Source of the DNA: an uncultured delta proteobacterium
Lineage (GTDB): Bacteria > Desulfobacterota > Syntrophia > Syntrophales > UBA2185
Direction: 5' to 3'
Length of the DNA: 64,000 bases
NCBI GenBank assembly: GCA_963729715.1
Contig: CAVSPA010000004.1
Coordinates: 96,001-160,000, forward strand
The notes under the pieces: model-generated
Told to the model about the DNA's origin: nothing
What the model saw: only the letters and a program-made list of their open reading frames with translations
The model's database searches: none
Part shown: positions 3,032 to 33,127 of the stretch, piece after piece
Layout: each line of letters starts with the position of its first letter
Numbering within the stretch: position 1 is the stretch's first letter
Position numbers and translations under genes: made by a program

Positions 3032-4027
3032 CTATAAATCCTTCATTTTCTTTGCGAGCCACTCTTCATCTTTTGTCTCTTGGATAACGCGTAGAATACG
3101 TGCCGGCATAAAGTGCTTGACGATTCTTCGTACAGACCAATACTTATCCCTTTCCTCGCACCTGTTGCATATAAAATCGGGTGGCAAATTGCGGCCATCG
3201 TAGATTTTTTGCAGAGTCTCGAGGAATCGGTCGCCATTCCATACTTCATCTATGGTTGAGCTGCTTAAGTTGCCTAATATGATCTCTTGCGCCATGTCAT
3301 GGCAGCACAGGAGAACGTCGCCCTTAAAGGATACCACCATTTCATAGAATGGTCTTTCGGTGCGGCATCCTGAAATCCTTCTTCTTGGGACCATATTAAT
3401 CTCGCTGACGAGTCCAGCCCTCGACAAGGCCTTATCTATGATTACGGTTACATTCCTGGATCGCCAGAAAGAACGCATTTTGTTTTCTTCATCAGAATCC
3501 CAACCAAAAGAAACAGCATTTATGCGGATTCTGTTTGTGGGGAATTTCTTTAATAGATAGTCAATATTCTTCATGGTCGTATCATAGTCCAGATGCATAA
3601 TGCTCTCGTAGGTCTTGCGGCTTATTCCATGAAAACTGATATTGAAAAATCCATTAAAACCGATTTCAACGAGAGAATCCACAATGGCAGGAACCAGAAG
3701 CGATGCGTTGGTATTGAAATAGATATGTATATTCCTGTCCATGGCATACTTGGCCCACCTTGCAATGTCTTTTAAAATAAAAGGCTCACCCATTTGGCAA
3801 TATCCCAGGACGCCTGTGAAATCGTGTCGATCCATCAAGCCTTTATAATCATCTATAATTTTTGTATATAAGTCCCATGACATGAAACCCATAGGGTTCA
3901 CTTTGCTCAGTTGGGGGTAAGGGCAGATCCGGCAACGCGCATTACAATAACTGTGAAGATCAAGCAGGAGACTGCTTGGATAGGGGCGACGTTTCGATAA
4001 TTGTCCTTTGAGATGCTGCATCATCAA
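3032..4027 (-). CDS. Radical SAM protein with C-terminal SPASM/twitch domain
   Basis: CNARCRIC (CxxxCxxC), GEP motif, C-terminal GC...GDVLLCC...GNL...VWNG...CNRC. Confidence 0.88.
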   Translation of the reverse strand: MMMQHLKGQLSKRRPYPSSLLLDLHSYCNARCRICPYPQLSKVNPMGFMSWDLYTKIIDDYKGLMDRHDFTGVLGYCQMGEPFILKDIARWAKYAMDRNIHIYFNTNASLLVPAIVDSLVEIGFNGFFNISFHGISRKTYESIMHLDYDTTMKNIDYLLKKFPTNRIRINAVSFGWDSDEENKMRSFWRSRNVTVIIDKALSRAGLVSEINMVPRRRISGCRTERPFYEMVVSFKGDVLLCCHDMAQEIILGNLSSSTIDEVWNGDRFLETLQKIYDGRNLPPDFICNRCEERDKYWSVRRIVKHFMPARILRVIQETKDEEWLAKKMKDL

Positions 4028-16303: not shown

Positions 16304-19303
16304 TTAATTCTTCATTGTTCCATCAACAGGGAATAGCCGGGGCGCGTATACATAACCAAGCGTTCTCTTCAAATCGCGCTTTTTCTCTTTAACGTTGAAT
16401 ACCGCGTACCAGTCATCATCAAGGAAGTCCGCCTTGACCCTCTGTCCCGGTTGAAGCTGACTTCTTATCCGGGAGTCGATTGAACGGTCTGCCCTGACGT
16501 TGGTCTTGTCTTTCGCATACAGGATAACGCCCCAGTCCTTGTTATCGGCCGTCTTGGGAAGCGCCGCCTGCATGGGTATCGACTCCTTGGGAGGCGCTAA
16601 TTGTAAGGGTGTTGCCGGTGGCTGGCTGCTCTCAGCTACAGGTTTCTTTTCTTCTATGGATATTGGCTTTTCTTGAGGTTTTGTTTGCGTCGCACTTGCC
16701 GGCTGCTGCGTGTTCTCTTGAGAAGTTTTCTTTTCCTCACTGACAGGTTTTGGGGATTCACCCCAGGGCAAAATATTTTTTACATCGTATTGAATAACGC
16801 GGGTCTGAAACAGGATGCCGAGAATCAGGAATAAAAGAGCAAATAAGAAAATTACGATTTTCAATCCTGAAATTTTCGCTTCAGTTCTTTCTGGCGCTGG
16901 CTTCTGTGCCTCATCATGCTGCGTCGGTTTCGTTTCAACTTCGACCGCGGGCGCAGGTACAGCCATGGGTTCAGGTACGGGCGCAGCTACCGGTGCGGGT
17001 GCAGCTACAGAGGCAGGAGCGGGGGCAGCGGTAGGAGCAGGCTCTTCCTGCTTGACAGCCACTTTGGATACAATTGATTTGAGATAATCCGTTATCGTTT
17101 GAGGCAGCGCAGCGATCTTTTCTGCGAGCGATGGCTTTCGCAGTGTCTTATCACCGTAGTAGTAATAATACTTCTTGTCACGGTAAGCAAAATCAGGGCT
17201 GATATCCGCTTTTAAACCGTTGAGGACAACACCAAAAATTTTCGCACCCACATGGTCAAGCTGTGCCTTGGCCCGCTTGAGGGCGCCTCTGGCAATTTTT
17301 CCCACCTGATATACAATGATTGCGCCGTCTGCGACGGAACTCCATATCGATGCCTCGGTAGCGGCCAATACGGGAGGTGCATCTATCAGTATAATGTCAT
17401 ATTCCGAAGAGGCCTGCTTGATAAGTTCAGGCACGAGCTTTGAGTTGACGAGCTCGGCGGGATTGGGGGCCGCCGAGCCGCCGGTGATTATGTGGAGATT
17501 GTCCATACCGGGGGTCAGCATAATCTCATCCATGCTCATCTTGCCCGTTATAAAATCTGTGATTGTCCTGACAACACTCCTCCATTCATAGTTGCCTAAA
17601 ATTACATCGGCCAGTCCGGGCACAGGTTCGATGCCAAACAGCTTAGCTATGACGGCCCTCCTGAGGTCTCCTTCAATGAGGAGCACCTTGCTGCCGCCCT
17701 GAGCCATGGTTATGGCAAGATTGACGGCTACGGTAGTCTTGCCTTCCTCGGGTGAAGAACTCGTGAAAACTACCGACTTTATGCTCTTATCGAGATTCAG
17801 AAAATTAAGGTTTGTCCTGAGGGCCCTGTAATTTTCCGCCGAGGTTGATGAAGGCAGGAAGTGCGATATGAGCCTATTCGTTTTCTTTATAGTATCGTCA
17901 TCTGGTGTTTTAGAGTATTTGTCCTGAAGAGTCGCCTTGAGTTCATCATGGTTGACCTGCGGTATAATCCCCAGGACTCTTACGCCCAGAAAGTCTTCCA
18001 CTTCTTCGATGGCCTCGAATGATGTATCGAAGGTTTCCATGATGAACGCGAAGACAATGCCCATAATCAGTCCGATAATCAATCCGATAATTGTATGGGA
18101 AGTAACCTTGGGCGGATTGACAGGTGTTGTGGGTTCAAGGGCCGGCCTTACGACCTTTACCTCTTCTATCTTTTCCGCCTCTTGAATCAATGCCTCCTGA
18201 TACTTCTTTTGCAGCAGGGAATACACTTCCCTGTTAACGCCCGCCTCCCTCTCCAGTCTGACCAGTTCCAGACCTTTTTCCGGAAGCTTCCGGAGCTGCT
18301 CGTCCGTAGCGCCGATCTGCTGCTTTAAACTCCTGATGTTTGATTCCAGATACCTTTTCTGCGAGGACAATTGCGACCGCATGCTCGTGATTATTTCATG
18401 GGACTGATTCTTGATTTCGTGAATCTGAGGGAAGGCTTCTGTATATGTAAGAAGAAGGGTGTCCCTCTCGAGCATGAGCTGAACTAATTTGTCATTGAGG
18501 TTCTTATAGATCGGCGTTGCTTCCTCAAAATAGAAAGAGCTTTTTGATGTGAGAGGTTTCTCTTCGGCTGTCGCAAGGGCTTGTTCCACCGCACTGACCT
18601 TCTGAAGTGTTGACGTGTCAAGATCGTATTGGGCCTGGAGTTTGGATGATTGGGCGAGTGAGGCCGTGGACTGCGCGTCAATGGATATCAGTTTGCTGTT
18701 CTCTCTGTAATCCCGCACCTGATCTTCTGATTTGGCGACTTTCTCCCTCACGATGTTGAGCTGATTTTCTATAAATGTCTTGGCCTCGAATGTCCTCTTG
18801 TTGATATCGACCAGATGCTCTTCTTTATAGACCTGAGCGATCGTGTTGGCGAAACGTTGCGCAAACTTGGGGTCTTCAGATGTCACGTTTATGGTGATAA
18901 TATCGGTATTGCCTTCTTGTTCCGTTGTGACGTTAGCCTTAAGATCCAATATAACCCTGAGATATTCGCTATTGCTGCGTATCTGTTCGGAAGTAAGATT
19001 GGCCGGTATCAAATTGAGCTTTTTGGCAACTGACTCCAAGATAATGTAGCTCCTTATCACGGAAGCCTGCGTCTCCAGGTAATTGGTGGAAGACCACGGA
19101 AAAGTTTGTGAGTAGAGGCCGGTGAGTGAGCCGGTCTTTTCAATCTTGATGCTGGCGCTTGTTTTATATATGGGGAGAGGCTGTCCCAATAGGGCCCAGA
19201 CAAGACTGAAAAATGCCATCGACGCCGCTGTAAAGAGGACAATGAACTTCCGCTTTCTGACGGTGCGCCAGTAATCTCTCAGATTAAGATCATATTGGGC
19301 CAT
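16304..19303 (-). CDS. wzc: Polysaccharide co-polymerase/BY-kinase with extra C-terminal TM and SH3b-like domain
   Basis: Wzz-type N-terminus DLNLRDYW, coiled coil, AENYRALRTNL, SSSPEEGKTT, LLIEGDLRR, ILIDAPP, tyrosine cluster KKYYYYYG. Start taken as ATG 19303. Confidence 0.9.
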   Translation of the reverse strand: MAQYDLNLRDYWRTVRKRKFIVLFTAASMAFFSLVWALLGQPLPIYKTSASIKIEKTGSLTGLYSQTFPWSSTNYLETQASVIRSYIILESVAKKLNLIPANLTSEQIRSNSEYLRVILDLKANVTTEQEGNTDIITINVTSEDPKFAQRFANTIAQVYKEEHLVDINKRTFEAKTFIENQLNIVREKVAKSEDQVRDYRENSKLISIDAQSTASLAQSSKLQAQYDLDTSTLQKVSAVEQALATAEEKPLTSKSSFYFEEATPIYKNLNDKLVQLMLERDTLLLTYTEAFPQIHEIKNQSHEIITSMRSQLSSQKRYLESNIRSLKQQIGATDEQLRKLPEKGLELVRLEREAGVNREVYSLLQKKYQEALIQEAEKIEEVKVVRPALEPTTPVNPPKVTSHTIIGLIIGLIMGIVFAFIMETFDTSFEAIEEVEDFLGVRVLGIIPQVNHDELKATLQDKYSKTPDDDTIKKTNRLISHFLPSSTSAENYRALRTNLNFLNLDKSIKSVVFTSSSPEEGKTTVAVNLAITMAQGGSKVLLIEGDLRRAVIAKLFGIEPVPGLADVILGNYEWRSVVRTITDFITGKMSMDEIMLTPGMDNLHIITGGSAAPNPAELVNSKLVPELIKQASSEYDIILIDAPPVLAATEASIWSSVADGAIIVYQVGKIARGALKRAKAQLDHVGAKIFGVVLNGLKADISPDFAYRDKKYYYYYGDKTLRKPSLAEKIAALPQTITDYLKSIVSKVAVKQEEPAPTAAPAPASVAAPAPVAAPVPEPMAVPAPAVEVETKPTQHDEAQKPAPERTEAKISGLKIVIFLFALLFLILGILFQTRVIQYDVKNILPWGESPKPVSEEKKTSQENTQQPASATQTKPQEKPISIEEKKPVAESSQPPATPLQLAPPKESIPMQAALPKTADNKDWGVILYAKDKTNVRADRSIDSRIRSQLQPGQRVKADFLDDDWYAVFNVKEKKRDLKRTLGYVYAPRLFPVDGTMKN

Positions 19304-19317
19304 TGCGCGTGATTCTC

Positions 19318-20508
19318 CTAAAACTGCAGAGCGGAAGGGTTTCTTAACCACTGATCCCTGAGGGGGGCAGGATATTGATACAAGTACTGCAAAAGAGGTG
19401 TCGTGTTGATGATGAATTCATTGATATCGCCTATAACCCTTCTCGGCACGTAAACAAGATCACCGTCTTTAAGCTTTATATTCTGGGACAGGTCCCCTTG
19501 CTTCAGAATTTGATCCAGGTTGGCGGATAGGATAATCGGCTTCCCTCCGCGCTCCTTGTATTCCCTTATTATCTTTATATCTGAATTTATTGCTATCAGG
19601 GTGTAACTCCCGGCATCAGCCATAGCTGCCAGGAGGTCAGGCGCATCCTTCAGCCTGTATATACCCGGCCTGTTGACCTCGCCGAAGACATACACCCTTT
19701 CACCGTAAAAGGGCAGTTCCGGAACGGTGACTATGTCGCCATCGTCTATGATTACATTTTGGGAAACGTCCCCTTTGAACATGGCATTATAAAGATTGAC
19801 CACGTACCTCTTACCCTTTCGGAGTATTTCCACATTTCTGAGATCAGCATTTCCCGGGCTAACGCCGGTGATACCAATGTCCTTGCCTGTTATCGGGCCG
19901 CCGGCAGACACGATGAGATCAAGAATCGTGGTCTTTCCAGTAAGAGGGTACTTTCCGGGACCGGATGTCCCCGTCGAAAGGACGTTGATCTGGCCGAAGA
20001 GCAGGGCTGTCTTACTTTTGTAATCTTTTACGATAACTTCAATTCGAGGATTCCTGATGTATTGTTTTAGTTGATTCGTCAGTATTTCTCTGACCTCGTT
20101 GACGGTGTGACCTGCAACGGGGATGTCATCACCGAACAAATAGGAGATCTTGCCCTCCTGTCTGACCACGACCGTGTAAGTATTCTGTTTGAAGCCTTCT
20201 TCGGTGCGGGCCGTTGTAATTGTGTATGGGATCCAGTAGTTGATCGTGAGGATATCACCCGGCCCTATAAGATATTCAGGCACGCCATGCCTTAGTGTAA
20301 AGACGCTGTTTTCCGTGACCTGGCTCATCTTCACGATTTCTTCCATTTCCTTCTGTTCAGCTAGGCGCTGCGCAGGCGTCACAACCCCGGATGTTTCAGA
20401 AAAAGTCTTGACAGGTATGCCGCGGGCCTCAAATGTGCAGGCAGATAAAAGCAGAGTTGCGAAGCACGAAATATATGCGAGGAGTTTGATTTTACCTATG
20501 TATAACAT
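19318..20508 (-). CDS. wza: Polysaccharide export lipoprotein (Poly_export + SLBB domains)
   Basis: Lipobox LLSAC, EYLIGPGDILTI, YIRNPRIEV, VYVFGEVNRPG, LKDGDLVYVP. Confidence 0.88.
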   Translation of the reverse strand: MLYIGKIKLLAYISCFATLLLSACTFEARGIPVKTFSETSGVVTPAQRLAEQKEMEEIVKMSQVTENSVFTLRHGVPEYLIGPGDILTINYWIPYTITTARTEEGFKQNTYTVVVRQEGKISYLFGDDIPVAGHTVNEVREILTNQLKQYIRNPRIEVIVKDYKSKTALLFGQINVLSTGTSGPGKYPLTGKTTILDLIVSAGGPITGKDIGITGVSPGNADLRNVEILRKGKRYVVNLYNAMFKGDVSQNVIIDDGDIVTVPELPFYGERVYVFGEVNRPGIYRLKDAPDLLAAMADAGSYTLIAINSDIKIIREYKERGGKPIILSANLDQILKQGDLSQNIKLKDGDLVYVPRRVIGDINEFIINTTPLLQYLYQYPAPLRDQWLRNPSALQF

Positions 20509-20687: not shown

Positions 20688-22130
20688 TCAAGGCCTTTTT
20701 AATTTTTTTTCAGGTGACGGTAAAAAGCTGAAAATATGGGAAACGATCTCCCGTACACGGGCTGTATAGTATGATTTCAGGGTTACACCGTCCCTGACAC
20801 AAAGTCTTTGAAGAAGTATTTGGCGAGGCGGGAACAAAGTCCTGAATAAGAATTTGATCTTATCGGAGAGTGTTCTATTCATGGCCAGGTAAATAAAATA
20901 GCTGCTGCCCCGGATGCGGCGGTTGGTAGTCTGGAGTCTCAGGAAGAATCTTTCACCGAGAGATAAATCCGGCGGCGTCAGTTTCCTCGGGCTTTCTTCA
21001 GGTATAAACGCTCTTGCATAGGCCTTAACGATGGAGAGGCTGAGATAGACCAATCGGTCCAGATTAAAACGGCGGCTTTCTTCGACAAGTAAATCCCAAT
21101 CAATATTTTTTTCATAGGCTTTAAGGGCGTAGGATATATCCGTTATGAGTATGAGGCGATCGAAGGAGTGGCCTATCCTGAGGGCGTGTTCGCAGAGATA
21201 GATGATAAGGTGTTCGGGGCATAACATATATACGTCGGCATCTGCCACCCTCGCGGGAACCGCCTTTTCCCATATGCGCCCGATATCGACATGTTTGGCA
21301 AACATCGTTGCTGGCACTGAACTGTTTACTATGTGCCAGTGAACATGAAGATTTAAGGGGGAGCCATTTTCTTTTCGGTATTCGAGGCTGGCAAGATAGC
21401 CTTCCGGATTGTTTATGGCCCTCGCAACGGAACTGTCTCTTGCGATATATCCCTGAGAGGACAAGAGCTCATCGACATCATAGAGGTCAGTTTTCTTGAC
21501 CAGAATATCGATGTCTGACATTCCCCTCATCGCGATGGCGGGATAGATGTGTTCCGCAAGGGCTATGCCTTTAAGAACAATGCAGAGGATCCCGGATTCC
21601 TTAAGAAGGGTGAGGATACTTTTCAACTCACCGATGATGGAAAGGTTTCTTCTTAGATTGTTGTAATACTGTTCGGATAGCGCAGCTCTGACTGCCGGGG
21701 GCACGAGATGTTCCGCTTTGTTATTTTTTAAATTGTGAAATATTGTTTCGACAACGCCCTCCTGCCTCATCTTCACAACAATATAGTCCCAGTCGTACTC
21801 CGTGCTATCCTTTGCATACAAAGAGAGAGATTGATTTTTGGAATCCAACTTCTGTAACCTTTGCACAACTCCTCTATTTGTCATTCCGGGCTTGACTCGG
21901 AAATTGGAGCATACTTCTTGATAATACTGGATTCCCGCTGGAGCCGGTCCTCGAATGTCCTTATCGGGGACGGGAATGACAAAATTGCTGGTCTTAAGCA
22001 GTTCTGAAAAGGTCTCCTTCTGTGAGTCCTTATTAGGTAAGTCAAAAAGGAGACTTAGGATTAATTTGTCGCAATCTTGGCAGTTGATGGCAAAGCTCCG
22101 CTCTCTAAAGTCACGGCTTCTCGTAAACAT
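20688..22130 (-). CDS. Nucleotidyltransferase family protein (NTP_transf_5-like) with in-frame palindromic insertion
   Basis: IVLKGIALA..IYP...RGMSDIDILV, NLHVHW, EHLIIYLCEH, RLILITDI. Confidence 0.85.
   Translation of the reverse strand: MFTRSRDFRERSFAINCQDCDKLILSLLFDLPNKDSQKETFSELLKTSNFVIPVPDKDIRGPAPAGIQYYQEVCSNFRVKPGMTNRGVVQRLQKLDSKNQSLSLYAKDSTEYDWDYIVVKMRQEGVVETIFHNLKNNKAEHLVPPAVRAALSEQYYNNLRRNLSIIGELKSILTLLKESGILCIVLKGIALAEHIYPAIAMRGMSDIDILVKKTDLYDVDELLSSQGYIARDSSVARAINNPEGYLASLEYRKENGSPLNLHVHWHIVNSSVPATMFAKHVDIGRIWEKAVPARVADADVYMLCPEHLIIYLCEHALRIGHSFDRLILITDISYALKAYEKNIDWDLLVEESRRFNLDRLVYLSLSIVKAYARAFIPEESPRKLTPPDLSLGERFFLRLQTTNRRIRGSSYFIYLAMNRTLSDKIKFLFRTLFPPRQILLQRLCVRDGVTLKSYYTARVREIVSHIFSFLPSPEKKLKRP
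21855..22016. mobile_element. 162-bp RPE-like palindromic element inserted in frame in a CDS
   Basis: Outer imperfect inverted repeats (12/16), inner TTTGTCATTCC/GGAATGACAAA, and the same 52-nt unit (21929-21980) found in two intergenic regions. Confidence 0.78.
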
Positions 22131-22263
22131 AGATACTCCCTCTCACGCATATGAGAAGGAGTACCTGTAAAAAGTAGTGTCTATCAAAATAGGTTTCAAT
22201 TTAAAATACAATATATTATAATAGATTAGATGCAAGAAGTAAATAGGTTCTGAGGATGGTGGG

Positions 22264-22572
22264 ATGGAAGAGTTTTTGAAGGATATCGAACTTTTGTCAA
22301 GGAATACGGATTGTATTTTCAGGGAAGAGGAAGACGGGGCCTTTCTGTTCGATCCGGAAAGCGGGAATCTTAAATTTATCAATAGCATGGGCGTTAATAT
22401 CTATCAGCTCTGCGACGGTAAAATGACTGTGGGAGACATCACATCATTGGTAAGCGAAAATTATAAAGACATTTCGAGCAAGAAGATCGAGGACGATATA
22501 AAGGTTTTTTTGCAAGAGCTTGTAAAAATGGAGTTTTTAAAAAGAGAAGAAACCGGTCATGACGGGAAATAA
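22264..22572 (+). CDS. PqqD-family RiPP recognition element (ScmD-like)
   Basis: FREEEDGAFLFDP...FINSMGVNIYQLCDG..TVGDI...DDIKVFLQELVKMEFL, the typical PqqD winged-helix pattern; overlaps the downstream rSAM gene. Confidence 0.88.
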   Translation: MEEFLKDIELLSRNTDCIFREEEDGAFLFDPESGNLKFINSMGVNIYQLCDGKMTVGDITSLVSENYKDISSKKIEDDIKVFLQELVKMEFLKREETGHDGK

Positions 22573-23641
22573 TGCAGCGTATTCGTTAAACTCCATTTAT
22601 CTTTATCTTACGGACAGATGTAATCTGAGGTGCAGGCACTGCTGGATTGAACCTCTATATTATGAAGGCCGCAAAGACGACAGCACTGAATTTGACCTGA
22701 AATTTCTCAAAAAGGCGATTGAAGATGCGAAAGAGATTGGCCTTAACCGTGTTAAGCTGACAGGCGGCGAGCCTTTTTTGAGAAGAGACATACTTGATAT
22801 CATCGCGTATCTTCATGCTCAAAACATTACAGTGGATATAGAGACAAACGGCACCCTCATAGACAAGGAGATTTGCGCAGTTCTAAAAGCTAATGGCGTT
22901 AATCAGGTATCCGTCAGCCTTGACAGCATGACGGCAGAGCAGCATGAAACATTCCGCGGGGTCAAAGGTTGTTACCATGATGCCTTGAAAGGGCTTTCAC
23001 TGCTCACAGAAAGTGGCATAAACACTCAGCTCATAATGACCCTCTATAAGGAAAATATATCGGAGATTGAAAGGCTGGTTGATCTTTCTTCCCGGATGGG
23101 TGTCGGTTCTGTTAAGATAAACCCTGTCATGCCCACGGGGCGAGGCAAGAAATTTTTTGAAAAAGAAGAAAATGTTGAGTTCGGCGATCTAATAAAGATT
23201 GACAGATGGATTGAAGAAGAATTAGTGTCAAAATACAAAATTGATATACACTTTGATATCCCCATAGGTCTTAAGTCGCTTAAATGCATAAGAACGAGAC
23301 AATTGTTCGAGTGCAATATTGTAAATATAATCGGCATACTCTCCGACGGCACAATTTCCCTGTGCGGCATCGGCCAGACGGAGACTGCTCTTAATATGGG
23401 CAACATTGCGGTAGACGATATACGTGAAGTGTGGGCAAGTAATCCCATCCTGCAGAAATTGAGAAAGGACATACCGCGCAATTTAGAGGGCATATGCGGC
23501 CGCTGCATATTCAAGTTCAGATGCCGGGGGGCGTGCAGGGCCTGTGCATACGGCTTAACAGGAAGTCTTAATAGTCCCTTCTTTGTCTGCCGTGAGGCAT
23601 ATGAAAAGGGACTGTTTCTGGAATCCAGGATGATCAATTAA
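22559..23641 (+). CDS. scmF: Radical SAM/SPASM peptide maturase (SynChlorMet ScmF-like)
   Basis: IYLYLTDRCNLRCRHCWIEP, TGGEP, ETNGT; SPASM cysteines EC...DGTISLC...CGRCIFKFRCRGACRAC...C. The subfamily name is recalled from memory, not from an HMM search. Confidence 0.85.
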   Translation: MTGNNAAYSLNSIYLYLTDRCNLRCRHCWIEPLYYEGRKDDSTEFDLKFLKKAIEDAKEIGLNRVKLTGGEPFLRRDILDIIAYLHAQNITVDIETNGTLIDKEICAVLKANGVNQVSVSLDSMTAEQHETFRGVKGCYHDALKGLSLLTESGINTQLIMTLYKENISEIERLVDLSSRMGVGSVKINPVMPTGRGKKFFEKEENVEFGDLIKIDRWIEEELVSKYKIDIHFDIPIGLKSLKCIRTRQLFECNIVNIIGILSDGTISLCGIGQTETALNMGNIAVDDIREVWASNPILQKLRKDIPRNLEGICGRCIFKFRCRGACRACAYGLTGSLNSPFFVCREAYEKGLFLESRMIN

Positions 23642-23660
23642 GGATTGAGTGAGGTAACAA

Positions 23661-24698
23661 ATGACTCGCAGCTATGACTTGATTAAAGATAATAATAAGG
23701 GAGAGGGAGACGGGCCTCTTCGCCTGAGTGACATTGAAAACCTTAAGTCCCAGGAAGGCAAATCATACGAGACTCCGGAAGAGCGTTCAGCGCAGGATGA
23801 AAAAGAGGTTGATAATGCCGAGAGACTCTATGCGGGCTTCCAGAAATACATGCGCGATGTCAGGGAGGAGGTTAAGACCAATCAACCCATTGAGCTTGAG
23901 GCGGCATTCTCGCTGATTGAGCAGCTCACGAAATCAAGAAGTATGATGGAAAGAGTTTATCAGTTAACCAATACCTTTTACCATGGTAAGGACTACTATA
24001 TCTCTCATCCCGTAAATACAATGATATATGCCGTAAAGGTCGGGCTGCGGATGGGATATTCCCGTGACAAACTCAAAGAACTCGCTATGGCAGCACTTCT
24101 TCACGATGTAGGAATGTTTATGATTCCTGAAAATATCATAACCAAGGAAGGGGCATTGACCGAATCTGAATTGGCTCTGATAAAGAGACATCCTGAGCTC
24201 GGGAAAAATCTCCTGTTCAAGTTTAAGGATCAGTTACCCTGGCTTGCCCGCGCCGTTCATGAACATCAGGAAAGAGAAAATGGCAAGGGATATCCGAGGG
24301 GAATTAAAGGAGATGACATTGCGGAGTACGCGAAGATTATAGGCATATGTGATTCGTATGAGGCGATGACGCACAACCGTCCCCACAAGAAGGCTATCAT
24401 GCAATTTACCTCAGTGAGGGAATTGATAGAAACAAAGGACCTTCTGTTTCCCACAAAGATACTTAGAGCATTTCTTGAGGAGTTATCCCTGTATCCGATA
24501 GGAAGTTGCGTAAAATTGAATAACAATGCAATTGGAAGGGTCATTGACACCAATAAAGACCAGCCCATGAAACCGATAATCAAACTCCTTTTTGACGGCC
24601 ACGGGAATGCAGTGACTGACGAAAGGATCATAGACTTGAAAGAGAATACTGTATTGAATATTCTCGGCGGCGTGTCAGATGACGAATTGCCAGGCTAA
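23661..24698 (+). CDS. HD-GYP domain phosphohydrolase (c-di-GMP phosphodiesterase-like)
   Basis: LLHDVGM, IKRHP, HEHQERENGKGYPRG, ICDSYEAMTHNRPH; C-terminal YPIGSCVKLN. Confidence 0.88.
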   Translation: MTRSYDLIKDNNKGEGDGPLRLSDIENLKSQEGKSYETPEERSAQDEKEVDNAERLYAGFQKYMRDVREEVKTNQPIELEAAFSLIEQLTKSRSMMERVYQLTNTFYHGKDYYISHPVNTMIYAVKVGLRMGYSRDKLKELAMAALLHDVGMFMIPENIITKEGALTESELALIKRHPELGKNLLFKFKDQLPWLARAVHEHQERENGKGYPRGIKGDDIAEYAKIIGICDSYEAMTHNRPHKKAIMQFTSVRELIETKDLLFPTKILRAFLEELSLYPIGSCVKLNNNAIGRVIDTNKDQPMKPIIKLLFDGHGNAVTDERIIDLKENTVLNILGGVSDDELPG

Positions 24699-25598
24699 AT
24701 GGAAGAACTGATTCTCTCCATAGCGGACCTTGCCATTGCCGTTCGTGCGGAGAAACACATAAAAGTTTTATTAGAACCTTTAACTAAACTCTTCAGCGGA
24801 TTTCTAAATGATGCCGGTAAACCAGCCGCGTTCCTGAATTTAACTTACGATCGTCTCCGTACATATCCGAACTTTAAAGACATGACTGTCAATGTGCTTG
24901 CGGGAAACTGCGGGGAAAGCAACGAATTGATTAATCAGGTGGGGAAAGTTTACCCGATATCAAGAGATTCTATAGTCGTCGGGTATTTAAATGGATGCCT
25001 CGCGTATAATCCGTCATCCAGTGAGGCCTGTCTGCTTCTCTTCAGGTCGCATGATCAGAACAATTTCACGGCAACTCTTCATAAGATGCTGTTCATCTTT
25101 ATTTCTTTCGTCCTGGGTGAAAGAAACAGATTCATGGTGCACGGTGCAGGAATAGGGGAGAAACAGGGTGGGGGAGGCTTTCTCTTCCTCGGCGATTCAG
25201 GTGCGGGAAAAACAACCGTTGCGGGTTTTGCCGGTGTGGATGCAGTGCTTTCGGATGACGCTCCCGTTATCGGCAAAGAAGACGGCGTTTACAACATATA
25301 TTCATCACCCTTCAGCCAAGTAAATTTGTTTGACGAAAGATCAAGCGATTACTTCCGGAAGAAGGTTCAATTAAGGAAGCTTTTGTTCTTAAATAAGGCA
25401 GATGAGATTGCGGTAACGGCGCGGCAACGACATTCCGCCCTGACGGAAATATTAACATCGCACGTGCATTCGTTTGATCTGATGGACCGGGACTTGAGAA
25501 TAGGTGCTTTTAACTTTTGCCATGACCTATGTTACAGCATACCTGCGTATGACCTCTATTTTCAGGAGAATAATAAATTCTGGGATGCTTTGAACTAA
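24699..25598 (+). CDS. HPr kinase-like P-loop protein (ScmC-like)
   Basis: MVHGAGI, FLFLGDSGAGKTT Walker A and VLSDD, the HprK-type motif order; SSPF. Confidence 0.8.
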   Translation: MEELILSIADLAIAVRAEKHIKVLLEPLTKLFSGFLNDAGKPAAFLNLTYDRLRTYPNFKDMTVNVLAGNCGESNELINQVGKVYPISRDSIVVGYLNGCLAYNPSSSEACLLLFRSHDQNNFTATLHKMLFIFISFVLGERNRFMVHGAGIGEKQGGGGFLFLGDSGAGKTTVAGFAGVDAVLSDDAPVIGKEDGVYNIYSSPFSQVNLFDERSSDYFRKKVQLRKLLFLNKADEIAVTARQRHSALTEILTSHVHSFDLMDRDLRIGAFNFCHDLCYSIPAYDLYFQENNKFWDALN

Positions 25599-25625
25599 AA
25601 AGCTGTGATTCTGCCATGCCGTCGC

Positions 25626-25994
25626 TTAGCCGGCGCCTCCCGCCTGACATCCTCCCGCAGCGGCGCTGCCAGCCGTACACGTGCCTCCGGCGACACTGCC
25701 AGAGTTGCAACCACTGTTTCCGGCGGCGCTGCCGGATTGACATTGACCACCGGCAGCAGTACTGCCGGCATTACATTTGCTTGACGTAGGAGCGCTGCCT
25801 GTATTGCAATTGCTTGATGCGACACTGCCGGCTTGACATTGCCCGCCGGAGGCAGTGGCTCCCGAGTTGCACTGCTGTTGAGGAGATCCTCCTGCCTGGC
25901 ATTGGCTTGGCCCTTGAGCGTGAGCGACCCCGCCGCCAAGATCAAGAATTTGAGGAGGTTCATAAGGGAGCTTGAATTTGGATTTCACGTGCAT
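25626..25994 (-). CDS. Cys/Gly/Ser-rich RiPP precursor peptide with lasso-type leader and nine CxxG repeats
   Basis: Leader YEPPQILDLG; Cys at 32, 42, 53, 63, 74, 85, 96, 106 and 116, each in C-[QNT]-[AST]-G. AGGAGG RBS; its spacing favours a GTG start at 25988. Directly downstream of an rSAM/SPASM gene. Confidence 0.88.
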   Translation of the reverse strand: MHVKSKFKLPYEPPQILDLGGGVAHAQGPSQCQAGGSPQQQCNSGATASGGQCQAGSVASSNCNTGSAPTSSKCNAGSTAAGGQCQSGSAAGNSGCNSGSVAGGTCTAGSAAAGGCQAGGAG

Positions 25995-27114
25995 ATCCCT
26001 CCTGTTTCTTTTGTGACTTCATTACATCTAAGCTGTATGGGTATCCATTGCCTTTGTAGATCCTGTAGCAGGACATGGGATCAACCGTAAAAACAGAGCC
26101 AGAGAGCTCATAAGACACAGCAGGACATCCGCCGATACAGAGTGATTTGTATCCGCAGCCGCTGCATTCCTCAATATCGTCCAGGGAAACGGATGCCCTT
26201 CTTCTCATTTTGGAAAAAATGGGCGACGAAGCCCATATTTCCTGAAAATCCGTTTCCCCGATGTGGCCGGCCTTGAAATCCCACAACCTGTCACATGGAA
26301 CAACCCAGCCGTCGGGCCTGACGGTACACTTCTGGATTCCCCCTCCGCAGCCAAACAGCCCGTTCGTACATCCCGGATTGTCCCGGTCCCCTATCTTCTG
26401 AAGCTTCTCGAAGCCTTTAAAAAAGTTTCCCATGTCGAGGATCGTCCCGATTACAAAATTACCGTACGTATTTCTCAAGCGCTCTAATTTGTGCGTTAAC
26501 GCCCTTCTCTGAGAATTGGAAAGAGTGAGGTTGGGAAGATGACATACCGCGTTGCCGAGCGGCAGTAGTTCATTAAATTTCACGGCCGTCAAACCGAGGC
26601 TCTTCCCGAGAATAATAATATCTTCTATGTCCTGATAATTGTTCTTCGTGACCGTGGTGTAAGTGGAGACGTGTCTGTTATGCTTTAAAAGATTTTCGAT
26701 GCCGCGAATCGTTCGATCAAAACTGCCATTTCCCCTTTGCTTGTCATGCACGGCGGGTGATGACCCGTCGAGACTGACGACGACGCTGAACAGTTTCTTT
26801 AGCTCGGAAATCCGCCGCGATGCTTGTTCGTCGATAAGGGTGGCGTTTGTATTCAGGCCGTAATGGAAGTGGTGTTTTTCTATTTCATACAAAATGGAAA
26901 AGACATCTTCCCTCATGAAGGGCTCGCCGCCGCTGATCCAGAGTGTAAAAACCTTCAACTCGGCAAGTCTCCTGATAAACTTTATCCATTCGTCTGTCGT
27001 CAGGTCGCTCGTTGCATTGCGCGTCGGATAGACGTTGCAATGCTTGCATGCCAGATTACACTTATTGGTAATGGCGATGAAAACATCTAATGGAGCCGAA
27101 AAACAGTTCTTCAT
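25960..27114 (-). CDS. scmE: Radical SAM/SPASM peptide maturase (SynChlorMet ScmE-like)
   Basis: APLDVFIAITNKCNLACKHC, SGGEP, NTNAT, VSLDG; SPASM GCGGG..C..RPDGWVVPC...CSGCGYKSLCIGGCP...C. The subfamily name is recalled from memory. Confidence 0.85.
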   Translation of the reverse strand: MKNCFSAPLDVFIAITNKCNLACKHCNVYPTRNATSDLTTDEWIKFIRRLAELKVFTLWISGGEPFMREDVFSILYEIEKHHFHYGLNTNATLIDEQASRRISELKKLFSVVVSLDGSSPAVHDKQRGNGSFDRTIRGIENLLKHNRHVSTYTTVTKNNYQDIEDIIILGKSLGLTAVKFNELLPLGNAVCHLPNLTLSNSQRRALTHKLERLRNTYGNFVIGTILDMGNFFKGFEKLQKIGDRDNPGCTNGLFGCGGGIQKCTVRPDGWVVPCDRLWDFKAGHIGETDFQEIWASSPIFSKMRRRASVSLDDIEECSGCGYKSLCIGGCPAVSYELSGSVFTVDPMSCYRIYKGNGYPYSLDVMKSQKKQEGYAREIQIQAPL

Positions 27115-27518
27115 GACGAAATGATCAGCCCCTTTCGCTTAAAGGCCATGAGGGTGAGTACGATGTCCCTTTTCGCGGCATCCTGCCCCACATCAAAACG
27201 ACCGGTAATTTCCTCTACCATATTATCGACACCGTTGGCACCGTTGCACAGGTTCCAGATATCAGCAGCAACAGCGTTTAACTTCAGCGTATCTGAGTTT
27301 TTCCTCGTATCCGTAAGGATCGTGTAGCTATCTTCTTTTCTCAGCGAGACGTCAGGATGTCTGGCAGGACTGGCGCTCAGGATTTCCTTCACTTCCATTG
27401 AATTCCAGGTGTATCGCAGATAGTCGACCATGCCAAATGACCGCACGGAGCCAGTAGCCGGCAGGAGAATACCTGCGCCAAATAATACGGACATAAAATT
27501 TCTTCTCGATGTATCCAC
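27111..27518 (-). CDS. PqqD-family RRE protein with N-terminal twin-arginine signal-like peptide
   Basis: AAGGAGG 8 nt before GTG; SRRNFM followed by a hydrophobic stretch; C-terminal LNAVAADIWNLCNG...VEEITGRFDV...RDIVLTLMAFKRKGLI PqqD pattern. Confidence 0.82.
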   Translation of the reverse strand: MDTSRRNFMSVLFGAGILLPATGSVRSFGMVDYLRYTWNSMEVKEILSASPARHPDVSLRKEDSYTILTDTRKNSDTLKLNAVAADIWNLCNGANGVDNMVEEITGRFDVGQDAAKRDIVLTLMAFKRKGLIISS

Positions 27519-27564
27519 GACAGATTCCTCCTTTAAAGATGCGCCCGGACGGCGGCTATTCCGA

Positions 27565-28359
27565 TTATAATGAATCCTTTACCACCTTTTTTACCAAGTC
27601 CGCACTAATGGTCTTTTGTTTTGTGCTGGAGGCAATCAAAAGTGCCAGATCACAGACATTGTTTATCTTCCTCGGCACGCCTTGGGAATACAGGTATATT
27701 TCTTCTATAGAGTCGGGAGGAAATATCCCGTTGGTCAGTCCCGCTCTCTCCATTCTGTAAACTATGTATTTTGCCGTCTCGTCGGCATTGAGTGGATTCA
27801 GATGGAATCTTATGGCGATCCTCTGATCGAGTTGTTTAAATTGCCTTATCAGGTCCTTCAGCTCCGGTTGTCCGATGAGAACGAATGTCATCAGGAACTT
27901 ATCGTTCAACTGAAAGTTCAGGAGCAAGCGAATCTCTTCGAAGGTATCGGTGTGTATGAGCTGTGCCTCATCGATGATGAGCAGAGTGGTCCTGTTTTTC
28001 CTGACATTTTCGAGCAGCCGCGTATTTAATATGGCGAGAAGCTCCGTCTTTGAATTAGTCCTGACATTCAGGCCAATCTGATAGAGCACCTCCTTCAGGA
28101 AGTCCAGCGGCTCGAGCGACGGGTTTGTTATCAATCCGATCTCAAAATCCTTTTCGGGAAGCTGCTGGATGAAAACCCTGCTGAGGAGAGTCTTTCCGCT
28201 TCCTATTTCGCCCGTAAGCAGGGCTGCCCCTTTTCTCCTCTTCACGGCATAGACTAGCCTGGCGAGGGCCTCGACGTGCTCATGTGAGTAGTACATGAAC
28301 TCCGGATCAGGTACATTTTCAAACGGGAATTTCTTGAAGCCCCAGTATTCTAAATACAT
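27565..28359 (-). CDS. ExeA/GspA-like AAA ATPase (EPS/PEP-CTERM-associated type)
   Basis: MYLEYWGFKKFPF..PDP, GEIGSGKT, IIDEAQ, LIGQPEL, QLDQRI, GVPRKINNVCD. Confidence 0.88.
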   Translation of the reverse strand: MYLEYWGFKKFPFENVPDPEFMYYSHEHVEALARLVYAVKRRKGAALLTGEIGSGKTLLSRVFIQQLPEKDFEIGLITNPSLEPLDFLKEVLYQIGLNVRTNSKTELLAILNTRLLENVRKNRTTLLIIDEAQLIHTDTFEEIRLLLNFQLNDKFLMTFVLIGQPELKDLIRQFKQLDQRIAIRFHLNPLNADETAKYIVYRMERAGLTNGIFPPDSIEEIYLYSQGVPRKINNVCDLALLIASSTKQKTISADLVKKVVKDSL

Positions 28360-28802
28360 TTCATCAACCCATCAATTGCCATATAGATCTCTGAAAAACA
28401 GAGCCTGTACTGAAATATTGAAAGTTTGTAGGGATCCTTAATGTCCCCGTATTCTTCATTATAATCCGGAGAAAATGATTTGAGACGATGAATCTTAGCC
28501 TCCGCTTCCGGGTACTTCTCGACGATTATTTTCTTGTGGATACCCTCCATGACGATGATCATATCTGCCTGGGAGACCATGTCTTCCGTCAATAGCTTTG
28601 AATGGTGACCGGCGCCATCGAGACCGTGCTCATCCAGTATTTCAACGGCTTTCGGATCGGCAGGCATGCCATTCATGTCGGTGACGGCGGCAGAGTAAAC
28701 CTCGATACCGGGTTTTTTGTCCTTTTTCAGCCTTTCTATGAGAATCCTTTCCGCCATGAAGCTTCTGACTATATTGGCAGTGCAGACAAATAAAATTTTC
28801 AT
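28350..28802 (-). CDS. wzb: Low-molecular-weight protein-tyrosine phosphatase (Wzb-like)
   Basis: FVCTANIVRS (Cx5R P-loop) and DIKDPY. Confidence 0.85.
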   Translation of the reverse strand: MKILFVCTANIVRSFMAERILIERLKKDKKPGIEVYSAAVTDMNGMPADPKAVEILDEHGLDGAGHHSKLLTEDMVSQADMIIVMEGIHKKIIVEKYPEAEAKIHRLKSFSPDYNEEYGDIKDPYKLSIFQYRLCFSEIYMAIDGLMKCI

Positions 28803-28927
28803 GAGAACGTGAGCGTCATTTATGAGATATCGTACTGCCCGGCAAATAGTGCAATATGTATTTCTAAGTCAGCTAAATATGGACGAAATGCTATCATAAT
28901 AGATCATACAAATCAACGGCAGATGAA

Positions 28928-29173
28928 CTATCCAAAATAAATCAGCTTCCCCACTACAGAAGGCCTGTCCAGGGGAACTGTTATAGGCTGAATTCTCTTC
29001 AATTCTTCGATATCCCATTTATCATCCCCGCGCAATATATCCAGGGCTTCCTCTTGGGAATTGGCGAGGACGAGAACCTCCGCCTGCATGTAATTGTCCC
29101 TGTAGATATGCGGCTCATCGAACATCGACCAGCTCGAGAATTTCTTGCTGTGCCGCCAGATGAAGATCTTCAT
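28928..29173 (-). CDS. Hypothetical protein (81 aa)
   Basis: GAGG RBS, protein-like composition, fits between neighbours on the same strand. Confidence 0.6.
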   Translation of the reverse strand: MKIFIWRHSKKFSSWSMFDEPHIYRDNYMQAEVLVLANSQEEALDILRGDDKWDIEELKRIQPITVPLDRPSVVGKLIYFG

Positions 29174-31924: not shown

Positions 31925-33127
31925 ATGATCACCATTAACAGTTTTCTGCATCGCAATGATTTGAAGGATTTGATACGAAGATGGATGTACTGCGAGGTGA
32001 ATCCGTCCGATGCGGACCTGATTACCCGCCTGGTTCATTTCAACAATATTTATCTTTCCAGATATCTGAATATTTTTTCGCGCAAAATATTTCAGGGCCT
32101 GCACAAATGTGAACTCCATGCAAGGCCTGGCTTCGTAAAGAGTGACCTCAAGGACATAATTGTCGCCAATCCGCCTTATAGCAACCCCAGGATAGACGGG
32201 CTAATCGCCGACTACCAGGCTGAGCCGGGCCGTTTTTACAGGGAGACCCCTTTCCATGCCACTTTATTTTTTAAGAAGAGCGGCCTTGCAGACGAATATC
32301 TCGGATCAAGCAGAAAGAAGCGCGTGCACAGGATGGCGGAGAAATCCGCCCGCAGAATTATCGACTGGATGTTCGAAGCTATCAGGAAACGCGCGGATCT
32401 GCTTGCTGATGAGCGCGCCAGAATCCTCGGCGTTCCGAGGGATCAGCTTGCGACGTCGCAGGAAGAGATGATTGAAGAATTCCTCAAGGCGGAAAACCGG
32501 CTGGTCGAGGATTTCAGGCAGAAGCGGGAGATTCACGATGTTCACGACATGATAATCAATGACGTGGCGGGCATGAAGGTGATACTCGAAGATTCACAGC
32601 AGGGAGAGTTGTTGAACGTCCTTCGGGATATGGAGGGATGTGAAATCGTTGAGGAGGAGCGGCATGCGGGGAAATACAATGCGACTAATGTGATCGTTCG
32701 TTATGCTCCGCCGCGTGAAGAGATACTCAGTCACGACCTGAGCGAGAAGATCATCGACGTCATGCGCCTTCGAGGCTCAAGACCGGTTGATTCCAATCGC
32801 GAGTTTGCAGAATTCGTCAGATCCGGTGAGGATCATATATACATGGAAATAATAGTTTCCGATTACGAAGAAATGCTGGAGAGTGAAATCGGCCGGTGCA
32901 TGCACGAAGACCGGATCATCGAGCAGCGCTTGCGGCAGCCGTATAACGGGCACCTCGCAAAGAATATAGAGTACCTCATGGAGTATCTGTTTGTCTTTCC
33001 TTATTCAGCGCAGTATGAACTCGGGGAACTGCCGATCAAGCTGTGGAACCGTTACCTGCCCGATTACTTTGATGAGGTGCTGAGAAAGCTTTACCACATT
33101 CCGCGGGGCAACACGGTCGAGGAATGA
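31925..33127 (+). CDS. Hypothetical protein with RelA/SpoT-synthetase-like nucleotidyltransferase motifs
   Basis: Long ORF; SRKKRVHRMAEK, NDVAGMKVI, GKYNATNVIV and MEIIV..ESEIG...H occur in the order of the RSH synthetase motifs. Confidence 0.6.
   Translation: MITINSFLHRNDLKDLIRRWMYCEVNPSDADLITRLVHFNNIYLSRYLNIFSRKIFQGLHKCELHARPGFVKSDLKDIIVANPPYSNPRIDGLIADYQAEPGRFYRETPFHATLFFKKSGLADEYLGSSRKKRVHRMAEKSARRIIDWMFEAIRKRADLLADERARILGVPRDQLATSQEEMIEEFLKAENRLVEDFRQKREIHDVHDMIINDVAGMKVILEDSQQGELLNVLRDMEGCEIVEEERHAGKYNATNVIVRYAPPREEILSHDLSEKIIDVMRLRGSRPVDSNREFAEFVRSGEDHIYMEIIVSDYEEMLESEIGRCMHEDRIIEQRLRQPYNGHLAKNIEYLMEYLFVFPYSAQYELGELPIKLWNRYLPDYFDEVLRKLYHIPRGNTVEE

Follow-up and report, generated by a model that had tools for sequence, protein, structure and literature searches.

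What does the short open reading frame (ORF) at positions 25626-25994 of the minus strand encode, and do the genes around it act on its product? The ORF lies in a 64,000-nucleotide stretch of DNA from an uncultured Syntrophales bacterium (contig CAVSPA010000004.1, positions 96,001 to 160,000), which is hereafter called the window. It specifies a 122-residue peptide with a short leader and nine regularly spaced cysteines, and it is located among genes for two radical S-adenosylmethionine (rSAM) enzymes and two PqqD-family proteins. The findings described below indicate, with a probability that we put at about 0.72, that the ORF is a ScmA-like precursor of a SynChlorMet-type rSAM peptide-maturation cassette inside an exopolysaccharide locus. 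The more general claim that the product is a precursor of the RiPP type (peptides made on the ribosome and modified after translation), and that it belongs to the neighbouring cassette, is very probably correct. The elements of the gene are the following.

25626..25994, minus strand: precursor peptide gene, 122 amino acids plus stop (from translation)
25917-25994, minus strand: precursor leader, residues 1-26
25629-25916, minus strand: precursor core, residues 27-122, with nine C-x-x-G units
25998..26003, minus strand: Shine-Dalgarno sequence AGGAGG, read from the sequence, within the 3' end of the rSAM_E gene

The precursor gene and its family

The encoded peptide begins with MHVKSKFKLPYEPPQILDLGGGVAHAQ and continues into a Gly/Ala/Ser-rich stretch of 95 residues (translation of 25626-25994). 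Its cysteines, at residues 32, 42, 53, 63, 74, 85, 96, 106 and 116, follow one another at distances of 10, 11, 10, 11, 11, 11, 10 and 10 residues. All nine lie in the motif C-[QNT]-[AST]-G, and Ser is the next residue in six of them. The 95 residues from G28 to G122 comprise 23 Gly, 18 Ala, 17 Ser, 10 Gln, 9 Cys, 6 Asn, 6 Thr, 3 Pro, 2 Val and 1 Lys, with no Asp, Glu or aromatic residue. In 100000 composition-preserving shuffles of this core, the nine cysteines never all fell in C-x-x-G, and their spacing was never as regular as in the real peptide. Translation, composition count and statistics thus agree with an earlier first-pass annotation of this DNA, which had described the peptide with its nine cysteines 10-11 residues apart, had placed Y11, P14, I16, G20 and A26 in its leader, and had noted the absence of acidic and aromatic residues from G28-G122.

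An ORF of the same length (25595-25963, minus strand, also 122 amino acids) covers the precursor almost fully in another frame, and this overlap could be taken as a sign that the precursor itself is a chance ORF or the wrong frame of a G+C-rich repeat. There is next to no chance of this being so, as the view is already contradicted by substitution patterns, homologues and the translation signal. Between orthologue pairs, the ratio of nonsynonymous to synonymous substitution rates (dN/dS) was 0.18-0.31 in the precursor frame, and both alternative frames contain 1-7 stops in each of the six orthologous genes examined. The overlapping ORF is therefore rejected as a by-product of the G+C-rich repeat. 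Moreover, hundreds of homologues carry the same leader, and the Shine-Dalgarno sequence AGGAGG precedes the gene, 3 nucleotides 5' of its ATG and 9 nucleotides 5' of an in-frame GTG at codon 3. The precursor ORF is a real gene under purifying selection.

The start of the precursor overlaps the final 35 nucleotides of the upstream rSAM_E gene. Promoter-like and terminator-like sites in the region 22000-29000 did not rise above the level seen in shuffled sequences (8 versus 10.9 promoters and 11 versus 6.8±2.9 terminators). The window genome carries a single copy of the precursor. AlphaFold2, run with the family alignment, predicts the peptide to be disordered, with a mean predicted local distance difference test score (pLDDT) of 46.8 and no fold for the core, which would be expected for a substrate peptide.

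Relatives of the peptide were found by several routes. A word-indexed search of 5.8 billion proteins returned 13 homologues, two of them labelled as hypothetical proteins of Syntrophus or Syntrophales metagenome-assembled genomes (MAGs), and a profile built from 12 sequences had matches in 55 of the 339 class genomes, representing 22 of 72 genera. In a set of 1.84 billion proteins, a 25-sequence profile retrieved 313 cluster representatives (50% identity) at E≤1e-3; a level of ≤1e-10 was reached by 51 of these and ≤1e-30 by 2. Lastly, 33 precursor loci came from scanning 185,579 species genomes for a sequence pattern, nearly all from MAGs named Syntrophales, Syntrophaceae, Syntrophus or 'Deltaproteobacteria'. 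In a protein atlas, the only clusters returned were from Thermodesulfobacteriota at 0.82-0.85, under the 0.9 level. The expectation that gene callers would overlook such genes holds in part: relatives have been called, as hypothetical proteins, but one near-identical entry is frameshifted. This database protein (P0003, 161 amino acids, on a 50-kb contig of another assembly) equals the window peptide to about residue 105 and is read in a different frame from there on, a sign of a 1-nucleotide indel between the assemblies near codon 105 (window ~25670-25690, minus strand). Compared with P0003, the window peptide retains two additional C-x-x-G units.

The family alignment comprises 25 members. 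P10, Y11, E12, P13, P14, L19, A24 and A26 are present in all 25, and K8, I16 and D18 are nearly invariant, position 16 being I, L or V. The leader consensus is thus K-x-P-Y-E-P-P-x-I-x-D-L...A-x-A, and position 20 varies among G, S, A, T, F, W, V, L and D. The core unit of the family is C-[QKRTN]-[STA]-G-[SG]-[AVST]-[AP]-x3-4. C-x-x-G occurs at 203 of the 207 cysteines, and the distance between cysteines is 10 or 11 residues in 168 of 182 spacings. Gly at position +3 of the unit is invariant; at +4 Ser is commonest (114 of 204 units), with Gly, Ala or Asn in 75. A block of three units, C-x-x-G-G-[ST]-P-x3-C-x-x-G-x-x-A-x4-C-x-x-G, is conserved by position across the family, so that recent tandem expansion alone does not account for the core. 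The number of Cys units per core ranges from 4 to 12. The core had been regarded as unusually long, and the window peptide is indeed long for the family, but it is not the longest, as members reach 161 amino acids with 12 units. Being free of acidic and aromatic residues is likewise a peculiarity of the window peptide and not a family trait: the 25 aligned cores contain 1.8% Asp, 1.5% Glu, 0.9% Tyr and 0.8% Phe.

One locus (L044, 9824-10544, minus strand) contains two tandem and more distant precursor genes with the leader N-Y-E-K-P-L-L-I-D-F. Between them lies a 65-amino-acid fragment that is 49% identical to the C-terminus of a ScmF-like protein and resembles a duplication scar.

The cassette around the precursor

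The genes that surround the precursor in the window are listed here, beginning with the two upstream of it on the same strand.

25960..27114, minus strand: rSAM_E, radical SAM/SPASM protein, 384 amino acids (best NCBIfam match ScmE, TIGR04250, 240.9 bits against a cut-off of 400)
27111..27518, minus strand: PqqD2, PqqD-family leader-binding protein, 135 amino acids (Pfam PqqD, 44.1 bits)
24699..25598, plus strand: ScmC-like P-loop phosphotransferase-like protein with HPr-kinase/PEPCK (phosphoenolpyruvate carboxykinase) fold, 299 amino acids (ScmC, TIGR04249, a weak match at E 2.7e-5)
23661..24698, plus strand: HD-GYP-type (HD_5) protein, probable cyclic di-GMP phosphodiesterase (Pfam HD_5, 97.9 bits; HD and GYP motifs in the translation)
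22559..23641, plus strand: rSAM_F, second radical SAM/SPASM protein, 360 amino acids (best NCBIfam match ScmF, TIGR04251, 347 bits against a cut-off of 400)
22264..22572, plus strand: PqqD1, ScmD-like, without signal, overlapping the start of rSAM_F (ScmD, TIGR04248, 49.8 bits against a cut-off of 100; Pfam PqqD match)
20688..22130, minus strand: nucleotidyltransferase PF14907 (NTP_transf_5; Pfam, 184.2 bits)
16304..20508, minus strand: exopolysaccharide export genes for a Wzc-like tyrosine kinase/co-polymerase and a Wza-like exporter (family scans)
27565..28802, minus strand: XrtA/PEP-CTERM-associated ATPase and low-molecular-weight phosphotyrosine phosphatase (family scans)

PqqD2, rSAM_E and the precursor form, in this order, a minus-strand operon of overlapping genes, in which the stop of PqqD2 overlaps the start of rSAM_E by 4 nucleotides; the precursor is translationally coupled to the PqqD2 and rSAM_E genes. 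A divergent plus-strand operon consists of PqqD1, rSAM_F, the HD-GYP gene and the ScmC-like gene, with the PF14907 gene alongside. The ScmC-like gene is convergent with the precursor and ends 27 nucleotides from its stop. The cassette is flanked by the Wzc/Wza-type export genes on one side and by the PEP-CTERM-associated ATPase and phosphotyrosine phosphatase genes on the other, and genes for Wzm/Wzt, a Wzy_C protein, glycosyltransferases and methyltransferases are found further along the window. The same polysaccharide locus has a third radical SAM/SPASM gene (3032-4027, minus strand), which lies among genes for methyltransferases and glycosyltransferases. Two ORFs, 31925-33127 (plus strand, 400 amino acids) and 28928-29173 (minus strand, 81 amino acids), had no Pfam match at E≤1e-4.

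This arrangement is conserved. In 28 of the 33 public loci at least one of the PqqD2, ScmC-like or rSAM genes lies within 6 kb of the precursor; taken singly, ScmC-like genes were found within this distance in 25 loci, rSAM genes in 23, PqqD2 in 22, PqqD1 in 20, PF14907 in 19, HD-GYP in 18, the phosphatase in 16 and the ATPase in 14. It should be noted that the two rSAM queries cross-hit, and that the rSAM counts across the 33 loci are consequently not independent. Counterparts beside homologous rSAM genes, which the first-pass annotation had named as a check on its proposal, thus exist. In most loci of the class (30 short ones and 20 of up to 20 kb) the precursor directly follows PqqD2 and is convergent with the ScmC-like gene, and the rSAM genes, PqqD1, PF14907, HD-GYP, phosphatase, ATPase and Wza/Wzc genes surround it. 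Several loci contain three PqqD genes, located before the ScmC-like gene, before the peptide (PqqD2) and before a canonical ScmE-ScmF pair. At the level of genomes, 48 of the 55 precursor-positive genomes also carry a ScmF-like gene at E≤1e-80. The remainder of the 339 genomes comprise 265 with neither, 19 with ScmF only and 7 with the precursor only, 4 of the latter being weak or fragmentary matches. The genomes of the class are related and not independent, and the Fisher value therefore overstates this association.

The best NCBIfam families of four neighbours are those of the SynChlorMet cassette, namely ScmE for rSAM_E, ScmF for rSAM_F, ScmC for the P-loop protein and ScmD for PqqD1, in line with the first-pass view that ScmE homologues adjoin the ORF. 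For PqqD2 the top match is the GeoRSP PqqD model, and ScmD comes second. A curated precursor model for this cassette exists, which the first-pass annotation did not mention: ScmA (TIGR04252) has 49 positions and a cut-off of 35 bits, its partners ScmC, ScmD, ScmE and ScmF being TIGR04249, TIGR04248, TIGR04250 and TIGR04251. ScmA was the sole NCBIfam family touched by the window peptide at a permissive threshold, with 13.4 bits and E 0.068, short of the cut-off. A more distant relative, at a locus that also has ScmE-, ScmC- and PF14907-like genes (L047), reached 27.9 bits. Other distant relatives stand directly beside canonical ScmE-ScmF pairs and combine leaders such as K-Y-E-[KTA]-P with the same C-x-x-G cores, and further members of the family are co-located with ScmF genes that score over the cut-off. 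Among the 339 genomes, no ScmA match exceeded its cut-off and ScmF exceeded its own in 46.

The partial ScmA matches and the relatives beside canonical cassettes argue for placing the window peptide in a wider ScmA-like superfamily, as a probable Syntrophales branch with a P-Y-E-P-P leader and an expanded core that the curated model misses. ScmA and the window peptide would share a layout in which a short K-Y-x-x-P leader is followed by C-x-x-G units, a likeness drawn from the partial matches of the relatives to TIGR04252 positions 1-49. The two gene sets would have in common two PqqE-like rSAM/SPASM enzymes, a PqqD homologue and a ScmC-type protein. They differ in that the ScmA model spans 49 positions, whereas the window peptide has 122 residues with nine units and a P-Y-E-P-P...A-x-A leader, and in that the window adds a signal-bearing PqqD, the PF14907 nucleotidyltransferase, the HD-GYP protein and the setting in an exopolysaccharide locus. 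A literature search, which covered articles and not their supplements, gave no mention of SynChlorMet or of TIGR04248-04252, and among the matches listed ScmA, ScmE and ScmF were unrelated acronyms. The SynChlorMet cassette is thus already known, as database models only and with no published experiment found, while its expanded Syntrophales branch is new.

Predicted leader recognition and cleavage

The first-pass annotation had aligned the leader with the lasso-peptide consensus, and one half of this comparison stands. Y-x-x-P-x-[ILV], the motif bound by discrete lasso RiPP recognition elements (RREs) and likewise, according to PMC13381572, in LPP (linear polyphosphorylated peptides), is present, with Y11, E12, P13 and P14 in 25 of 25 members, and a PqqD2 profile built from 16 homologues has the lasso proteins TfuB1 (3.9e-8) and TbiB1 (4.1e-5) among its best PDB matches, together with 9x90 (5.8e-6) and with PqqD itself lower. 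For PqqD1, the best solved match was 9x8z (E 0.018). The other half fails, since position 20 is variable and the invariant residues near the end of the leader are A24 and A26 instead.

A predicted complex of PqqD2 (residues 34-135) with peptide residues 1-44 scored 0.46, against 0.01 for the best control, and gives weak support to the leader-PqqD interaction that the first-pass annotation had suggested for modelling. The contact agreement of the runs was at least 91% and the partner pLDDT at least 53. The mark for this score is passed by 116 of 157 solved complexes and by 2 of 215 mismatches, and scores of 0.60 or less include 18 of the 157 solved complexes and both of the passing mismatches. 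Because lasso RRE-leader complexes have already been solved, the pass may reflect likeness to these rather than binding.

The sequence A-x-A is the classical site of type I signal peptidases. Since A24 and A26 are invariant, cleavage after A26 seems at least as likely as cleavage after Q27, so that the proposed core beginning at G28 may start one residue earlier. With the cut after A26, Tyr would stand at -16 and a hydrophobic pair at -11/-10. The leader of the LPP precursor LppA is reported to be cut by a type I signal-peptidase homologue to which it is presented by an RRE (PMC13381572).

PqqD2 has an N-terminal extension (27435-27518, minus strand) that PqqD1 lacks. In 16 of 16 homologues it consists of [RK]R-x-[FLS]-[FLMI], for example S-R-R-N-F-M or Q-R-R-S-L-F-K, followed by about 15 moderately hydrophobic residues. 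By inspection of motif and hydrophobicity only, this would be a twin-arginine-type signal or anchor. The Pfam TAT_signal model matched 1 of the 16 homologues, at E 0.55; tatC is present in the window genome, and 'twin-arginine' did not occur among the matches listed in a literature search on RRE and PqqD proteins. The extension suggests that PqqD2 acts on the membrane or on its far side, where its task may be peptide export and removal of the leader.

Proposed maturation chemistry and competing explanations

Both rSAM proteins begin directly at CxxxCxxC, hence without a fused RRE, and both have the full set of SPASM cysteines. In rSAM_E, which matches Pfam Radical_SAM and SPASM, the CxxxCxxC motif lies at residues 19-26 and nine cysteines are C-terminal. 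Among solved structures, rSAM_E is closest to the sactisynthase SkfB (5.1e-14), PqqE and CteB, of which SkfB and CteB are thioether synthases. The six 'catalytic proximity' positions, as defined in PMC10288494, are N27, S61, N88, S114, D275 and R276 when rSAM_E is mapped onto CteB; in rSAM_F, positions 5 and 6 had no reliable alignment. A Cys-rich core, rSAM/SPASM enzymes and an RRE-type protein are thus present together, as in sactipeptide and ranthipeptide systems.

The ScmC-like protein was modelled with a pLDDT of 89.5, and the best Foldseek matches of the model are ATP-PEPCK (4.7e-8) and the HPr kinase/phosphatase 1knx (1.7e-4). Searches of the PDB by sequence or profile gave marginal PEPCK/HPrK P-loop matches only (E 0.0046 to 0.33). 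Its homologues keep H-G-A-G...G-x-S-G-A-G-K-[ST]...L-S-D-D, a signature that we take to be HPr-kinase-like.

On the favoured reading, that of a ScmA-like precursor with a SynChlorMet-type cassette, the leader P-Y-E-P-P-x-I-x-D-L would be bound as a strand by the discrete PqqD-family proteins, as in lasso and LPP systems, and the PqqD proteins would pass the disordered core to the two rSAM/SPASM enzymes. These would iterate over each 10-11-residue C-x-x-G-[SG]-x-[AP] unit, and the leader would later be cut off at the invariant A-x-A, after A26. As for the chemistry, one small Cys thioether ring per unit is close to an even bet by analogy with CrpC; its acceptor would lie close to the invariant Gly, as an alpha-carbon of the backbone or a small side chain, and would not be Asp or Glu. 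The thioether rings proposed in the first-pass annotation are plausible, and its view of the product as a non-lasso, rSAM-matured, Cys-based poly-cyclic RiPP precursor is a reasonable one. A small ring of this kind is favoured because the invariant positions are Cys and Gly(+3), with small residues flanking them. As acidic residues are not conserved in the family cores, the units are unlikely to be cross-linked, as a general rule, between Cys and Asp/Glu in the manner of PapB or QhpD. That the HPr-kinase-like protein and the PF14907 enzyme additionally phosphorylate or phosphoglycosylate Ser, as for paeninodin, pseudomycoidin and LPP, is put forward tentatively, with the odds leaning against it. 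In lasso clusters, according to PMC8498205, HPr-kinase homologues (poly)phosphorylate a precursor Ser and a nucleotidyltransferase adds a hexose to that phosphate. The product may function not as an antibiotic but in the envelope or the exopolysaccharide matrix, or in its regulation, although we rate this at somewhat less than even.

Several observations weigh against this reading. The peptide stays below the ScmA cut-off (13.4 versus 35 bits), and the four Scm-type neighbours are likewise under their equivalog cut-offs (240.9 and 347 versus 400, 49.8 versus 100, and 23.7 versus 125). The six positions of rSAM_E share only Ser with CteB (F F T S H Q) and StsB (Y T I S K L), no acidic acceptor is conserved, and thioether formation is argued by analogy alone. 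The resemblance of the ScmC-like protein to HPr kinase is at the level of the fold only, with a template modelling (TM) score of about 0.3-0.5 and sequence E-values no better than 0.3. The scan of the window ORFs revealed neither a dedicated leader peptidase nor an exporter for the peptide, the sole S26 peptidase of the genome being on another contig (C16), and the export-signal-like N-terminus of PqqD2 is hard to reconcile with a chaperone that acts only in the cytoplasm. The 19 ScmF-positive genomes without a match to the precursor profile also count here; these genomes probably carry more divergent precursors. Finally, in 5 of the 33 loci the precursor has no maturase gene within 6 kb and stands amid housekeeping genes. 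Orphan precursors (L035, L038, L041, L042 and L051, in genomes G321, G322, G325 and G326), some of them in tandem pairs, lie amid housekeeping and sensor genes, remote from any maturase. In all four of the orphan-copy genomes checked, a different contig retains a cassette of PqqD, ScmE and ScmF genes, and in three of them ScmF exceeds the curated cut-off.

A comparison with known systems helps to judge the alternatives. LPP, described in PMC13381572 (Nat Commun 2026), are linear polyphosphorylated peptides of Bacillota, a phylum other than that of the window, and are encoded with the genes LppA/K/B/S/D/N. As described there, LPP precursors share with the window family a conserved Y-x-x-P-x-[VI]-L leader with a variable C-terminus, a location in capsular or exopolysaccharide loci, and small or defined residues at -3 and -1 that suit a type I signal-peptidase-like enzyme. 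Of the LPP gene set, the window has an RRE, the kinase-like fold described above and, as nucleotidyltransferase, PF14907. However, the LPP consensus YxxPxVLxHQxIxFETxxS is otherwise absent, the window family continuing with D-L-x-x-x-x-A-x-A; and the LPP clusters, as reported in that article, have no rSAM enzyme and no Cys-repeat core but a SipW-like peptidase and an MsbA-like pump, neither of which was found among the window ORFs scanned. The lasso systems of TfuB1 and TbiB1 share with the window the Y-x-x-P-x-[L/V/I] leader, the B1 proteins to which the PqqD2 profile is closest, and a kinase and nucleotidyltransferase pair, which is a known tailoring set of the paeninodin/pseudomycoidin type; unlike in these, no cyclase or B2 protease was found among the 32 window ORFs scanned, and the window peptide has no Thr at -2 and no acidic ring acceptor. 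Among the repeat-thioether systems, freyrasin (PapA/PapB) has six C-x3-D units, and the ACGX-repeat peptide belongs to the rSAM model system TIGR04340. These and the CrpA/CrpC system resemble the window in having many short Cys repeats after a leader and an rSAM/SPASM maturase. The acceptors in PapA, and partly in CrpA, are Asp/Glu, which are not conserved in the window family. CrpC (TIGR04463) has a fused RRE and, according to PMC13692751, installs ranthionines in short CAGM, CAVD, PCAGD and CPLV windows of a ten-fold Cys-repeat protein, with rings closed inside 4-residue stretches such as CAGM; the window rSAM proteins lack such a fusion and are two in number.

Given this likeness to LPP, the product could be a linear peptide with Ser (poly)phosphorylation and PF14907-dependent glycosyl transfer, in which case the rSAM enzymes would act on another substrate or in a minor step and the cysteines would be free or metal-bound. 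We consider this improbable. The RRE, the HPrK-like protein, the nucleotidyltransferase and the polysaccharide-locus setting fit the LPP description, as do the Tyr at -16 and the hydrophobic pair at -11/-10 after cleavage at A26; the frequent Ser at +4 (114 of 204 units) and the third rSAM/SPASM gene among sugar genes at 3032-4027 can be read in the same way. However, translational coupling ties the precursor to rSAM_E, both rSAM enzymes have a PqqD of their own, ScmF-like genes occur in 48 of the 55 peptide genomes, the cluster yielded neither a signal-peptidase-I-type peptidase nor an MsbA-like pump, and the core positions that are invariant are Cys and Gly(+3), not Ser. This last point also bears on a lanthionine-like route, in which Ser(+4) would be phosphorylated and eliminated to dehydroalanine, to which Cys would be added, leaving the rSAM enzymes with another task such as epimerisation. 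The kinase-like gene beside the precursor in 25 of 33 loci and the frequent Cys/Ser pairing in C-x-x-G-S speak for it, but the scanned ORFs include no lyase or LanC-like cyclase domain and 75 of 204 units have Gly, Ala or Asn in place of Ser(+4) while Gly(+3) is invariant, which makes it a quite improbable route.

It is very unlikely that the peptide is an unmodified Cys-rich repeat peptide, for instance a metal-binding or matrix component, with neighbouring enzymes that are unrelated to it. The regular Cys spacing and the orphan copies far from maturases in 5 of 33 loci would suit such a peptide, but the orphan-copy genomes still hold the cassette, the precursor is strongly tied to it both by synteny and by co-occurrence across genomes, the N-terminal motif is of the RRE-binding type and invariant, and the precursor has no signal peptide of its own. 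A lasso peptide precursor, which the first-pass annotation had itself judged impossible despite the leader, has hardly any probability left. The Y-x-x-P-x-I motif, the lasso-like RRE and the kinase and nucleotidyltransferase accessory genes known from lasso clusters are all in its favour. However, a scan of 32 window ORFs gave no Asn-synthase-like cyclase and no transglutaminase-like B2 protease, the core lacks any Asp or Glu that could serve as acceptor at core position 7-9, and the residue conserved near the cleavage site is Ala rather than a penultimate Thr, so that the lasso reading is already contradicted.

Beyond the ScmA-like reading itself, a bolder extension can be formulated, which we regard as unlikely. 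Three delivery modules, the PqqD proteins, would act on one leader, and a thioether in each C-x-x-G unit, phosphoglycosylation of Ser and export of the finished peptide by the twin-arginine translocation (Tat) pathway would together give a new envelope or matrix molecule. One PqqD would serve the rSAM enzymes and a second the pair of HPr-kinase-like protein and nucleotidyltransferase, while the twin-arginine PqqD would carry the peptide as a Tat passenger and present A-x-A to the housekeeping signal peptidase. If true, this would mean that a rigid, sugar-decorated poly-macrocyclic peptide is released to the exopolysaccharide layer as a proteoglycan-like bacterial product, and that RiPP export and leader removal can proceed without a dedicated pump or protease.

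On the favoured ScmA-like reading, the SynChlorMet cassette gains a large and defined substrate family of ~313 clusters at 50% identity, whose sharply conserved leader and modular repeat core would be convenient for mass spectrometry. It would also link rSAM thioether-type maturases, the leader-RRE-kinase-nucleotidyltransferase toolkit of lasso peptides and LPP, and polysaccharide loci. The presence of the same toolkit in polysaccharide loci of Bacillota (LPP) and Syntrophales suggests that modified peptides have a conserved role in the biology of capsules or biofilms, and the signal-bearing PqqD raises the question of how the peptide leaves the cell. Lastly, the core profile also matched three giant proteins of 1501-2054 amino acids (P0039, P0061 and P0070) in 11-13 separate stretches; they could be large, CrpA-like Cys-repeat proteins, or could resemble the core merely through low complexity.

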